This document shows, one piece after another, positions 978 to 5,082 of a stretch of 5,082 nucleotides of DNA (position 1 is its first letter; every line of letters starts with the position of its first letter). The notes under the pieces are model-generated. The model was not told where the DNA came from, ran no database searches, and saw only the letters and a program-made list of their open reading frames with translations. Made by a program: the position numbers and the translations under genes. Source of the DNA: a virus (taxonomy: Duplodnaviria; Heunggongvirae; Uroviricota; Caudoviricetes); IMG/VR virus record IMGVR_UViG_2579778652_000011; one strand, 5' to 3'.

Positions 978-1075
978 AAGCCTCACCTCCGAGAGTTCGG
1001 ATGGTGCTAAGTGTAAGATTCAGGCTCTCAGGCTTGCTAACAAGAAGTCGAGGATGTTTCCGGAGCCTAACAACG

Positions 1076-1099
1076 AAAAAGCCCCGGGACATGCCGGGG
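1076..1099 (-). terminator. Intrinsic terminator-like hairpin downstream of the moron and upstream of the holin
   Basis: GC-only 6-bp stem (CCCCGG 1082-1087 pairs with CCGGGG 1094-1099) with a 6-nt loop. On the minus strand it is followed by C then TTTTT (plus-strand AAAAA at 1076-1080). Confidence 0.5.
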
Positions 1100-1194
1100 T
1101 CAGATGGAGTGCCAGATTAAGCTTCTGGCGGTATATACTCGTGTTTGATATCGTTAAATCGCCAAAAGTAACAATTCAAACAAAGAGGATTTTT

Positions 1195-1356
1195 ATGTCT
1201 GAAAAAAACAAGCCACAAGATGAAAATAAACCTCAGCAACCCGTGGCACCAAAACCAACTCCAACACAAAGTACTACAGACTTTGCTACACGTCGTGTTT
1301 TTGTTGGAGATTCTGCCGACTCAGTCATTGAACATATAAAAAAACAGCCGAGATAA
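1195..1356 (+). CDS. Candidate small protein, 53 aa, hydrophilic and Pro/Lys/Gln-rich, convergent with and overlapping the 3' end of the membrane-protein gene
   Basis: ATG at 1195 preceded by AAGAGGA Shine-Dalgarno with 5-nt spacing. Translation MSEKNKPQDENKPQQPVAPKPTPTQSTTDFATRRVFVGDSADSVIEHIKKQPR. Overlaps the minus-strand gene by 32 nt. No homolog recognised, and low-complexity composition makes a chance ORF possible. Confidence 0.3.
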   Translation: MSEKNKPQDENKPQQPVAPKPTPTQSTTDFATRRVFVGDSADSVIEHIKKQPR

Positions 1357-2658: not shown

Positions 2659-2945
2659 AAATAACCTTCCTTTCTCCAGATTTCTTGTGTGCGAAAAACA
2701 CCTTCTGCATGCATCAGGCGTAATTCTTCTTTGGTGTAATCGCTGGTTTTTACCCGCCCGTCGATTAAATCGTGGCATGAGCTACAGGCAATCGCTGCCT
2801 GCATATCGTGTGGTTTTGTCGCTGTTCCGCACGTCCCCGCCAGCCTGTAATGCGCCAGCACAGAGGTTTCGGGATTGTGATTGCAGTAGCCAGGGATTCT
2901 GATCTGGCACATCTGGCCTTTAGCCGCTTTACGTAAATTCACCAT
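2655..2945 (-). CDS. ybcO: YbcO-like DUF1364 protein (Cys/His metal-binding putative nuclease of the lambdoid nin region), 96 aa
   Basis: Translation (LRKAAKGQMCQIRIPGYCNHNPETSVLAHYRLAGTCGTATKP...IACSSCHDLIDG) matches recalled E. coli DLP12 YbcO in length and conserved Cys/His pattern. Start overlaps the upstream stop as TAATG. Confidence 0.75.
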   Translation of the reverse strand: MVNLRKAAKGQMCQIRIPGYCNHNPETSVLAHYRLAGTCGTATKPHDMQAAIACSSCHDLIDGRVKTSDYTKEELRLMHAEGVFRTQEIWRKEGYL

Positions 2946-3544
2946 TACGCAAACTCCAGTAGTTGTGCGGCCACATTTTCAACTTCCTCCTGAGAGGAGA
3001 ATTTACGGAACAGAATCCAGTTCCACAGCACATTCAGAACAGATTTATAAACCTGCTGAAACTCGGTTTCGTCCATATTCGCAAACGCGATGGATTTCGC
3101 CCTGCGCCCACGGCTACCGTCCGGATAAATATGCTCGGTGTAAAATCCGGCCTGAATGGTTACCCACTCGCGGAAAGCCTCAAACGACTTTAGCAATGCC
3201 GTATCCCGAGTTCTGCGTGTCGCAACTGTATTTAGATATTGCTCTGCGGCATCACTCAGGGCTGGTGTGTGTTCCCGACCAACTGATTCGCACAAGTAAT
3301 CCACGAAACCAGACAGCAGTTCTCGTTCGCGAGGTGTGATCGCCCCACCGACCGGAGTCCAGTAATCGAATCCCAGTTGCAGGAGTTTGAAAAAACGCTT
3401 GTGGAATGCGTAGTTACGCACACGCTTAAAGTCTGCGTGTATCCACTCACCTATTTTGATTTGATGCAGAAAATCGCAACTCTCCGGCGTCGCCGGGAGA
3501 AGTAAACCAGAAGAGGTTTGTTTGACCAGTTGTATATGCGCCAT
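2945..3544 (-). CDS. Phage nin-region protein, probably DUF1367 family, 199 aa
   Basis: Long ORF directly upstream of and translationally coupled to the YbcO-like gene, the usual DUF1367 to DUF1364 to Q arrangement in lambdoid prophages. Family assignment is from recollection, not a search. Confidence 0.6.
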   Translation of the reverse strand: MAHIQLVKQTSSGLLLPATPESCDFLHQIKIGEWIHADFKRVRNYAFHKRFFKLLQLGFDYWTPVGGAITPRERELLSGFVDYLCESVGREHTPALSDAAEQYLNTVATRRTRDTALLKSFEAFREWVTIQAGFYTEHIYPDGSRGRRAKSIAFANMDETEFQQVYKSVLNVLWNWILFRKFSSQEEVENVAAQLLEFA

Positions 3545-3602
3545 TTCTCAATCTCTCGATGGCGCAGCGCAGCAGATGCCAGTTGTTCAGGCTGACGAAT
3601 AA

Positions 3603-3630
3603 AGTATAAATAAACTGGCTATGGTGTAAA
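3603..3630 (-). promoter_or_regulatory. Candidate sigma70 promoter for the DUF1367/YbcO/Q operon
   Basis: On the minus strand, TTTACA (plus 3625-3630), a 16-nt spacer, then TATACT (plus 3603-3608), about 60 nt upstream of the ATG at 3544. By sequence only. Confidence 0.3.
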
Positions 3631-3824
3631 GCCCCACATAGCATGAACAAACACTACATATCAAATAGCTGGTACAAGGATAGAAATACGACATTTATTA
3701 TTAAAAACGATTAGATAAATTACATTTTAATGTTATGCAAAAGTTCTTTTTTATCATAACATTTCAATAAAAGCATTACAGATGCAATCATCCCGTCATC
3801 ATCAATTATTTAAGGTGGTTAAAC

Positions 3825-3911
3825 ATGGAAAATAACAAGTTCGCACATCTCGCTCCTTTTTTATCCGTAATCCTTTTCGCTTGTTGTTTTATATGGGCAT
3901 TATTTTTATAA
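3825..3911 (+). CDS. Candidate small hydrophobic protein, 28 aa, single predicted TM helix
   Basis: ATG at 3825 preceded by TAAGGTGG Shine-Dalgarno with 6-nt spacing. Translation MENNKFAHLAPFLSVILFACCFIWALFL. Lies in AT-rich intergenic DNA. Confidence 0.35.
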   Translation: MENNKFAHLAPFLSVILFACCFIWALFL

Positions 3912-3984
3912 AGTAGCCACATGATAAGTTGCTGGAATCATATTTCCCACTCAAGTCATTAACATTTGATAAGATATATCTAAA

Positions 3985-4045
3985 AGGACACCTTTACATT
4001 ATTTATGTGTATATAATTTATTTATATACACAGTAAAGGTATCCT
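3985..4045. repeat. Composite imperfect palindrome: perfect 10-bp inverted repeat TGTGTATATA / TATATACACA with 7-bp spacer, flanked by 13-bp arms AGGACACCTTTAC / GTAAAGGTATCCT (12/13)
   Basis: Read directly. Inner arms at 4006-4015 and 4023-4032, outer arms at 3985-3997 and 4033-4045. The left side carries an 8-nt insertion (ATTATTTA) between outer and inner arms. Confidence 0.6.
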
Positions 4046-4302
4046 GGGAAAATATTTATCGTTAAAAAATACATCATAAATAATTAAGCTGAAATTTCAG
4101 AACACAACTAATACACACAATAAGGTTCAGTAACAATAATCTATGTGGACTACATCGAGATTTTTTGATTAAACTTTAATAACTTATTCCTAACACACAG
4201 AATGCATAAACTAAAAGTAAAACAAATAGTTATACGAAAAACAACCATATTTATTATATCTTCTCCTCTAATCAACATATCAATTATGTGTTTCATAACA
4301 GC

Positions 4303-4350
4303 TTGACATAACCCTCAAAAACACGCATTTATAATGCATGTTTTTGAGGG
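4303..4350 (+). promoter_or_regulatory. yeaR-like promoter region with an NsrR-like operator palindrome centred on the -10
   Basis: Perfect TTGACA (4303-4308) and TATAAT (4330-4335) separated by 21 bp. 17-bp arms CCCTCAAAAACACGCAT / ATGCATGTTTTTGAGGG (16/17) centred at 4331. The core AACACGCATTT-A-TAATGCATGTT (4320-4342) matches about 18 of 22 positions of the NsrR 11-1-11 consensus as I recall it (AAGATGCATTT n AAATACATCTT). Confidence 0.5.
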
Positions 4351-4357
4351 GGTGGTT

Positions 4358-4696
4358 ATGACACACAAGAGAATTCCTAAAGATTGGGTAATCAAACGCT
4401 CAACTCCGTTCTTCACAAAAGAGAACGTACCTTCAGCGTTATTAACACATCATAATACAGCAGCAGGTGTTTTTGGGCAGTTGTGCGTAATGGAAGGCAC
4501 TGTAACATATTATGGTTTTACTGATGAGAATGCTACTGAACCGGAGATAAAAGTAGTCATTAATGCTGGCGCTTTTGCAACAAGCCCACCACAATACTGG
4601 CACCGTGTTGAACTAAGCGATGATGCTCAGTTTAATATTAACTTTTGGGTCGCTCCAGACTTCTCGGGCGAAAAAGTCTATAGCACCAAAAAATAG
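4358..4696 (+). CDS. yeaR: YeaR-like DUF1971 protein, 112 aa
   Basis: Size and motifs (RSTPFF, FNINFWVAP) resemble my recollection of E. coli YeaR. The NsrR-like operator upstream fits known NsrR/NarL regulation of yeaR. Start taken at ATG 4358 after a GAGGGGGTGG Shine-Dalgarno, because the annotated ATG at 4334 lies inside the -10 hexamer. Confidence 0.6.
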   Translation: MTHKRIPKDWVIKRSTPFFTKENVPSALLTHHNTAAGVFGQLCVMEGTVTYYGFTDENATEPEIKVVINAGAFATSPPQYWHRVELSDDAQFNINFWVAPDFSGEKVYSTKK

Positions 4697-4725
4697 ATGA
4701 TCATATTAAAAATGCTTTAACAGTC

Positions 4726-4762
4726 AGACCCGGCAGGGCTATCCCCGACGGGTCTCATTTTT
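4726..4762 (+). terminator. Intrinsic terminator downstream of the yeaR-like gene
   Basis: 7-bp stem AGACCCG (4726-4732) pairs with CGGGTCT (4749-4755), with additional imperfect inner pairing. Followed by CA then TTTTT (4758-4762). Confidence 0.6.
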
Positions 4763-4914
4763 GTAAATATATTGGTTCTACATTGACAGGAGACTTCAAC
4801 CATAAGAAGTAATCTGAATACTTGAGCAATAAATTTACTTAAGATTAATGAGCGCACCTTGCCGGACAAAGATAAACCAAGGTAACACCTTTTTTCTAGC
4901 CAGTATGTAATCAA

Positions 4915-5082
4915 TCAGAAAGCCGCTCCATAAGAACAACAGCAAGACAATAAATTGCCATTACAGCCGCAATAGCCAGCGCACATTTGAGAACCAGCAC
5001 GACAACCCCCTGTATTAGACGCACACCAGTCCTGATAAATATGTAGACTGGCCCCCTGAATCTCCAGACAACCAATATCACT
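4915..5082 (-). CDS. Possible 3' end of a gene entering from beyond the window (55 open codons, Cys-rich C-terminus)
   Basis: Minus-strand frame is open from 5082 to a TGA at 4917-4915. Translation ends ...QDWCASNTGGCRAGSQMCAGYCGCNGNLLSCCCSYGAAF. No start or Shine-Dalgarno is visible in the window, and an open frame of this length can occur by chance. Confidence 0.15.
   Translation of the reverse strand, partial: SDIGCLEIQGASLHIYQDWCASNTGGCRAGSQMCAGYCGCNGNLLSCCCSYGAAF

Follow-up and report, generated by a model that had tools for sequence, protein, structure and literature searches.

A conserved small-protein gene in convergent overlap with a prophage membrane-protein gene: evidence for a candidate two-gene moron of temperate phages

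Does a 53-codon open reading frame (ORF) that runs head-on into the 3' end of a prophage membrane-protein gene encode a protein, and what might it have to do with the gene that it overlaps? The question is raised by a window of 5,082 nucleotides, the whole stretch of DNA analyzed here, which comes from a lambdoid (Rac-type) Escherichia coli prophage and spans its region of late-gene control and lysis, reading on the minus strand. From right to left, the window holds a DUF1367 gene (2945-3544, minus strand), a 96-aa gene annotated as a DUF1364 domain protein in E. coli AR_0369 (2655-2945, minus), a Q-type antiterminator gene of the DUF1133/Phage_antitermQ kind (2116-2658, minus), the gene for a 189-aa membrane protein of PHROG 11870, regarded as a moron (1325-1894, minus), a lambda-family holin gene (636-986, minus), and an endolysin gene annotated as a family-24 glycoside hydrolase (156-632, minus). 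These genes lie in a stretch that is 100% identical in E. coli AR_0369, where it adjoins trkG. The small ORF lies on the opposite strand (1195-1356, plus), between the holin and membrane-protein genes, and both it and its partner are annotated solely as hypothetical (PHROGs 14506 and 11870, respectively).

The small ORF starts with ATG, encodes 53 amino acids followed by a stop codon, and translates as MSEKNKPQDENKPQQPVAPKPTPTQSTTDFATRRVFVGDSADSVIEHIKKQPR. A Shine-Dalgarno sequence, AGAGGA (1184-1189, plus), lies 5 nt ahead of the ATG, and other loci carry GGAG- or GAGG-type sites at the same position. The small and membrane coding sequences share 32 nt (1325-1356), comprising the C-terminal end of both proteins, and across homologous cassettes the overlap measures 20, 23, 26, 32, or 35 nt. 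The anatomy proposed in the initial annotation, i.e., a 53-codon frame with a good Shine-Dalgarno sequence, convergent to the membrane moron and overlapping it by 32 nt, is therefore borne out by the sequence.

A frame of this kind could also have opened by chance in an A-rich 3' untranslated region, as the initial annotation had allowed, and loci in which it is broken beside an intact membrane gene would speak for such an origin. Homologues of the 189-aa protein were gathered in the form of 104 protein clusters, 8 genome loci, and 80 viral contigs, a set that also includes four E. coli phages and the Actinobacillus phage vB_Apl-pPE4 (hereafter pPE4). Sixty-eight distinct cassettes with an intact membrane gene were considered, with membrane-protein identity down to 50%, and in 64 of these the frame is kept as a convergent ORF of 47-64 aa that overlaps the 3' end of the membrane gene by 20-35 nt. 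The pPE4 cassette, for example, has both genes and a membrane protein just 53% identical to that of the window. Across 38 unique family sequences, the small-gene frame is open in every one, relative to 0-7 of 38 for the other five frames, and indels in the gene preserve the frame. The comparison of synonymous with non-synonymous change likewise indicates purifying selection, with a pN/pS of 0.47 overall and a median of 0.21 across 60 moderately diverged pairs; summed entropy at codon positions 1, 2, and 3 is 44, 32, and 62, making the third position the most variable. The protein matches PHROG 14506 along its entire length (E = 2.4e-31, residues 1-53; family function not annotated), and a profile search with the small protein found a further 77 clusters across Enterobacterales, none of them named. 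Short, low in complexity, and A-rich as it is, the frame has next to no probability of being accidental, since its openness in 38 of 38 sequences, the selection acting upon it, and the spread of the family together exclude a chance ORF. On this comparative evidence, ORF 1195-1356 is judged to be a genuine small-protein gene.

The four cassettes that were not counted each have their own history. One (L002) has lost C1345, so that both genes differ at their C-terminal ends; a second (L030), from a draft viral contig, has an A7-to-A6 slip that shifts the frame at codon 4-5; a third (L018) contains an N; and a fourth (L084) does possess a 51-aa ORF that was missed by the filter used to collect small proteins. 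Several E. coli isolates from humans (XYEH3314, the source of L002, and hits H20-H22) share the C1345 deletion, which lies in the 32-nt overlap. The deletion changes the final six residues of the membrane protein, giving a product of 190 aa, and lengthens the small protein to 80 aa, and in these versions the small gene is no longer annotated by PGAP. Two homopolymer A7 runs occur in the small ORF (1201-1207 and 1338-1344), and it is the first of these that reads A6 in L030, perhaps through sequencing error or slippage.

PGAP lists the small ORF as a hypothetical protein (e.g., WP_240763414.1) in the majority of the E. coli records that were inspected, and annotated versions of 71, 100, or 130 aa extend it upstream in frame. 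These extensions were rejected, because in pPE4 a stop codon lies two codons ahead of the ATG, and in other loci the upstream sequence is in another frame. A 50-aa hydrophobic ORF on the antisense strand (1117-1269, minus) was likewise rejected, because in the majority of loci the minus-strand frames are not open.

The 38 unique small proteins form a nearly gap-free alignment, with an MS(E/Q)xNKP start, a disordered stretch rich in Pro, Gln, and Lys, a DFxxxRxxVGDSA motif, and a basic tail. The product had been described at the outset as hydrophilic and of low complexity, a description that holds; AlphaFold2 predicts a mostly disordered chain with one short helix at residues 40-49 (mean pLDDT 68.6). 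Its partner matches PHROG 11870 from end to end (E = 6e-108, residues 1-189; family function not annotated) and is predicted with confidence (pLDDT 85.6) to form three long helices, at residues 14-62, 68-92, and 134-188. Membrane-spanning segments were assigned by eye to approximately residues 45-62, 68-92, and 170-188; the first two hydrophobic stretches appear to form a hairpin, and the third is C-terminal. The N-terminal helix, also read by eye, is acidic, conserved, and probably cytoplasmic, and a GIGSS small-residue motif is conserved in the first transmembrane segment. Scans of both window proteins against Pfam, NCBIfam, and PADLOC gave no match, fold searches with the membrane protein returned generic helical matches only, a profile search against PDB sequences yielded nothing relevant, and searches of the literature by accession, PHROG identifier, and peptide string found no paper on either protein. 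A broader literature search on small convergent proteins and antitoxins yielded background papers only.

Each gene of the pair appears to possess signals of its own. Upstream of the small gene lies an extended -10 element, TGATATCGT (TGnTATnnT; 1146-1154, plus), as a conserved pattern: of 34 unique upstream regions, 28 contain TGnTA[T/C]nnT, as a rule 49 nt ahead of the small-gene ATG, and variation is confined to the n positions, except for a C at the third hexamer base in a single locus (L051). Six loci of one subfamily have another upstream region without the TGnTATnnT box. Transcription of the small gene would start near G1161. A classical -35/-10 reading, TTGATA...TAACAA, was rejected in favor of TGnTATnnT, as the latter alone is essentially invariant.

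Immediately downstream of this element is a conserved block, TTAAATCGCCAAAAGTAAC (1155-1172, plus), which corresponds to the discriminator and the start of the 5' untranslated region (UTR) and, on the opposite strand, to the 3' UTR of the membrane mRNA. The block is nearly identical in the E. coli prophage and in Actinobacillus phage pPE4, and is nearly invariant across genera, beyond the conservation of either coding sequence and beyond what a promoter requires. The string GTAACCAC recurs in the 5' leader of a remote module, L093. Between the membrane-gene terminator and the small-gene promoter there is also a palindrome or hairpin, GCCAGA-ttaagct-TCTGGC (1115-1134), that many loci keep with altered sequence and that is absent from several; it displays no strand asymmetry and could be an operator or an RNA element. 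In one locus, L081, the terminator and small-promoter region are almost identical to window positions 1075-1160, even as its membrane protein is just 58% identical to that of the window and its small protein is clearly diverged as well. This mosaic suggests recombination with a breakpoint at the small-gene promoter.

For the membrane gene, a promoter-like -10 box, TGGTAAAAT (1923-1931, minus), is found about 35 nt upstream of the ATG, with TAAAAT itself at 1923-1928. An exact TAAAAT lies 34-41 nt upstream of the membrane-gene start in 36 of 46 unique upstream regions, within surroundings that vary, and the remaining ten carry close variants such as TAAGAT; the box would be expected to have promoter activity. 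In most loci it is directly preceded by a tR'-like hairpin, which in the window is a tR'-like terminator just past the Q-type gene (2010-2035, minus), at the upstream edge of the cassette. At the other end, the membrane-gene transcript is predicted to stop at an intrinsic terminator (1074-1099, minus) with the stem CCCCGG/CCGGGG followed by CTTTTTCGTT. Of 53 unique loci, 40 have a terminator-like hairpin with a T-run beyond the small-gene promoter, variable in sequence from locus to locus. In some relatives (L045, 4820-5127, and L050, 4820-5053), the cassette is followed on the late-operon strand by three or four clustered tRNA genes (Met, Phe, Thr, and Gly), which replace the terminator.

A further element is found inside the codons of the partner gene. 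Fifteen nucleotides past the small-gene stop codon begins an RNA hairpin on the plus strand, GGAGCAAGGATG-gtata-CATCCTTGCTTT (1371-1399), which coincides with codons 166-175 of the membrane gene, and a strong hairpin is found at this place in every locus. When 37 distinct sequences are aligned without gaps, 92% of the cells are paired and five pairs have changed on both sides, giving a covariation score that was reached by none of 500 shuffles. Two of the covarying pairs are synonymous third positions of membrane-gene codons; a third couples Ala/Val167 with Ala/Thr174, and its C-A state is never seen. Read in the plus orientation, the cells include 94 G-U pairs vs. 6 A-C, and this asymmetry, together with the covariation, argues that the structure is selected in the plus-strand RNA, i.e., in the small-gene transcript. 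The folding z-score of the window sequence is -3.09. A scan with a consensus terminator model did not call the hairpin, owing to its short U-tract, and it is consequently described here as a terminator-like 3' stem-loop that may serve as a 3' stabilizer or pairing element instead of a terminator. An Rfam search of the whole window returned only two sub-threshold microRNA matches, both located elsewhere in the window.

Taken as a whole, these observations make it very probable that the small ORF is a real gene, that it forms an obligate pair with the membrane gene, and that the two share an antisense architecture. The initial suggestion that the small ORF or its transcript is antisense to the 3' end of the moron mRNA gains strength from the conserved promoter-like boxes of both genes, from the covarying 3' hairpin within the partner's coding sequence, and from the position of the partner's terminator past the small-gene promoter. 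Specifically, the small transcript would run from approximately 1161 to the stem-loop at 1371-1399, within the partner's last 25 codons, and the membrane-gene transcript would pass through the whole small gene in antisense before reaching its terminator at 1099-1074. Since that terminator lies beyond the small-gene promoter, the membrane-gene mRNA should hold the entire small gene in antisense, giving some 240 nt of RNA complementarity.

The predicted full complementarity of the two transcripts raises the alternative that the plus-strand transcript is an antisense RNA only, akin to a type I antitoxin or regulator, and that its open frame is incidental. The 3' hairpin kept on the plus strand would suit this alternative, as would a nucleotide conservation that is higher in the promoter and 5' UTR than in the coding sequence, and a peptide whose middle is variable and of low complexity. 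However, the frame is open in 38 of 38 sequences and preserved by indels, its start codon and Shine-Dalgarno sequence are conserved, and its substitutions are of the coding type (pN/pS of 0.2-0.5, with the third position most variable). In addition, remote modules with unrelated nucleotide sequences have small proteins of the same style, starting with MSx or MEE. As such, a purely non-coding role is very unlikely, and the small-gene transcript may instead have an RNA role in addition to its coding one.

The depth of the pairing was examined with a membrane-protein profile search of 1.84 billion representative proteins, which returned 99 clusters, mostly of 160-200 aa. Nine remote loci, at approximately 20-35% identity, were inspected, eight of which had sufficient downstream DNA. 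In six of the eight there is a convergent hydrophilic ORF of 42-53 aa that overlaps or abuts the 3' end of the membrane gene by 0-30 nt, starts with MSx or MEE, and is unrelated in nucleotide sequence. The predicted proteins read MSNQKSSQSKSPK... in L093, MEEKNNDQPKQPEKPK... in L097, MSNKPDNKPVKP...VVFAMDEAIKNKK in L099, MSNKKEKSPPPPPPPPPQ... in L100 (532-660, minus), MSDKKQDN...TFIGDSVNK... in L102, and MSEDKNESTEQ... in L104; in the other two, L105 and L106, the small ORF is absent. The small gene of L093 has a near-consensus promoter, TTGTTA-17-TATAAT. A significant 3' hairpin was not found in the remote modules by folding z-score. In L100, the small partner has nine consecutive prolines (MSNKKEKSPPPPPPPPPQ...). 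Ribosomes would stall on such a stretch without EF-P, which hints that translation of this small ORF could itself be regulatory.

Several of the remote modules adjoin genes for a CI-like repressor, Cro/CII, or Bro-N/AntA, outside the late region. Co-inheritance of adjacent genes is by itself no proof of interaction, and the two genes, both annotated as hypothetical, could in principle be functionally independent cargo, adjacent by descent. A joint function is favored by a convergent 3' overlap that is retained to a membrane-protein identity of approximately 20-35% and in different genomic slots, and by the codons of the partner, which house and co-evolve with an RNA structure belonging to the small transcript. 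Independence is given only a slim chance.

As judged from its composition and surroundings, the two-gene cassette has the behavior of a mobile moron. Examples of morons, as Hendrix and colleagues use the term, are gp15 of HK97 and bor and lom of lambda, and the rexA/rexB genes of lambda are an established exclusion pair. Like morons, the cassette is a GC-poor insert between conserved phage genes, with a GC content of 0.36-0.43 (1050-1950) vs. approximately 0.50 in both flanks. It also has the makings of a self-contained inserted unit, with its own promoter-like -10 box (36/46) and terminator (40/53). Like morons and rexA/rexB, it encodes a membrane protein and sits in slots used for lysogen-expressed exclusion genes; unlike them, it is built from a convergently overlapping gene pair. 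The main-family cassette is flanked on one side by any of three Q families (PF03589, PF06323, and DUF1133/PF06530) or by a KilA-N insert, and on the other by any of four holin families (PF05106, PF04971, PF16931, and PF16083). The membrane protein comprises about 100 clusters at 50% identity from Enterobacterales and Pasteurellaceae, and the cassette was found in 257 of 5426 complete E. coli genomes; on plasmids it is almost absent, with two matches only.

The constant position of the main-family cassette between the Q antiterminator and the holin gene, where Q-modified polymerase would read through it, invites the idea of a late-operon accessory that tunes lysis timing, i.e., a membrane protein that resembles an antiholin or modulates the holin, together with its regulator. 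Such a function appears improbable, however, given that the cassette has its own -10 box and terminator, travels with four unrelated holin families, and is found in its remote versions close to immunity or early genes, not to lysis genes.

A second AT-rich island is present in the window at 3545-4950 (GC 0.26-0.41), comprising a 112-aa DUF1971/TehB-like gene (4358-4696, plus) and about 750 nt without a convincing ORF. In E. coli AR_0369, the slot of this island, upstream of the DUF1367 gene, is occupied by the iteA/iteS anti-phage system, and the slot thereby resembles a hotspot for variable cargo. In phage pPE4, a gene for a "tellurite resistance protein" is the immediate neighbor of the two-gene cassette. 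A strongly hydrophobic 56-aa ORF with a GTG start (4911-5081, minus) lies at the right end of the window.

Which known systems does the cassette resemble? Its layout is most like that of the type I toxin-antitoxin pairs with a convergent 3' overlap, such as txpA/RatA, bsrG/SR4, and yonT/SR6 from prophage-like elements of Bacillus subtilis, and par of Enterococcus. In these, the toxin is a small hydrophobic peptide, usually of fewer than 60 aa, and the antitoxin is a non-coding antisense RNA. Like them, the cassette combines a membrane-protein gene with a convergent partner whose RNA would be complementary to the 3' part of the mRNA; at the level of sequence, it also shares with them promoter-like boxes for each gene, predicted overlapping and complementary transcripts, and carriage by a prophage. 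Two defining features of the class are nevertheless lacking, in that the candidate toxin is a protein of 189 aa with three long predicted helices rather than a small peptide, and the antisense partner is not non-coding but carries a conserved ORF under purifying selection. It differs from type II systems too, as its genes are convergent and have separate promoter-like boxes instead of forming a co-directional, autoregulated operon. A toxin/antitoxin or regulator pair, as raised in the initial annotation, is a plausible reading of the cassette. The type I class in general has been the subject of a review (PMC8309996).

A further point of comparison is provided by the dual-function RNAs, among them SgrS/SgrT and SR1/SR1P, which encode a small protein and act in trans on distant targets. 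In the cassette as well, one short transcript would putatively both base-pair and encode a small protein, but its pairing partner would be the overlapping gene itself. Small RNAs and small proteins in B. subtilis have been reviewed elsewhere (PMC7430163).

For the membrane protein, a lead comes from P0206, a bona fide remote member (hhalign probability 99.3) that matches the PADLOC models for PycTM (1.5e-8) and for a CBASS 2TM effector (4e-5) over nearly its full length, and that scores 16.1 bits against Pfam PF18967, below the cut-off of 27.2. The relatives of P0206 retrieved by homology search are unnamed Pasteurellaceae proteins. Like the PycTM and CBASS 2TM effectors (PDLC02364, PDLC00700; PF18967), the family consists of small all-helical membrane proteins of 160-190 aa. 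Matches to these models were obtained for just 2 of 73 remote members, and the membrane protein of the window has no match to them at E <= 1. Unlike in PycTM and CBASS, the partner is a small convergent gene, and no adjacent nucleotide cyclase is present among the neighbors examined (Q-type gene, holins, CI-like repressor, Bro-N, and AntA); an unrelated guanylate-cyclase-domain gene lies about 1.2 kb away in L106, itself a borderline match. The PycTM link of the membrane protein is thus a weak one, a lead and not membership.

The explanation that accounts best for the locus as a whole, and which is held to have a somewhat better than even chance of being correct, is an obligate two-gene moron of temperate phages with reciprocal control. 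Both genes would be transcribed in the lysogen, where the polymerases would collide head-on; transcriptional interference and the formation of an RNA duplex would then couple the expression of each gene to that of the other. The disordered 53-aa product may additionally act on, or together with, the membrane protein, and Q-modified polymerase reading through from pR' would be expected to overrun the small-gene promoter. In the preferred reading, the small gene would be a brake on a membrane effector. As to what that effector does, it is a tentative suggestion that it is a lysogen-expressed, membrane-active protein of exclusion or abortive infection, or a toxin-like protein, checked or tuned by its small partner.

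Still more speculative is the possibility that the cassette represents a new type of prophage defense or addiction unit, in which a PycTM-like effector is placed under the control of one doubly acting convergent gene. The small gene would then provide both a cis-antisense RNA against the effector mRNA and a disordered peptide serving as antidote or sensor, which would combine the logic of type I toxin-antitoxin systems with that of type II. Strong late transcription from an induced or invading phage, or host shut-off, might silence the small gene and thereby release the effector.

The main rival of the brake turns its sign around. Here the small protein would be a positive partner of a membrane exclusion or abortive-infection system, as its sensor, activator, or subunit, comparable to RexA with RexB, and the convergent overlap would merely set the stoichiometry. 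The pair is kept in lysogeny-associated slots, downstream of Q/tR' and beside CI/Cro, its genes have separate promoter-like boxes, and the conserved motif of the disordered peptide could dock on the acidic N-terminal helix of the membrane protein, all of which would agree with such a partnership. On the other side there is one locus (L010) in which the small gene is intact and the adjoining membrane gene is frameshifted; as a single case, it slightly favors an antidote. A positive partnership seems rather unlikely, and the small gene as a brake on the membrane effector is preferred.

If this picture is correct, a widespread prophage cassette that now consists of two "hypothetical proteins" would become a defined two-gene module with a control circuit. 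It would provide a clear case in which the codons of one gene carry, and co-evolve with, the RNA structure of a conserved coding gene transcribed from the other strand. Likewise, a candidate membrane effector with an unusual regulator would join the defense and addiction functions that are encoded by lysogens. Finally, small convergent ORFs at the ends of genes are often dropped by annotation pipelines, and the present case shows that comparative data alone can validate them.
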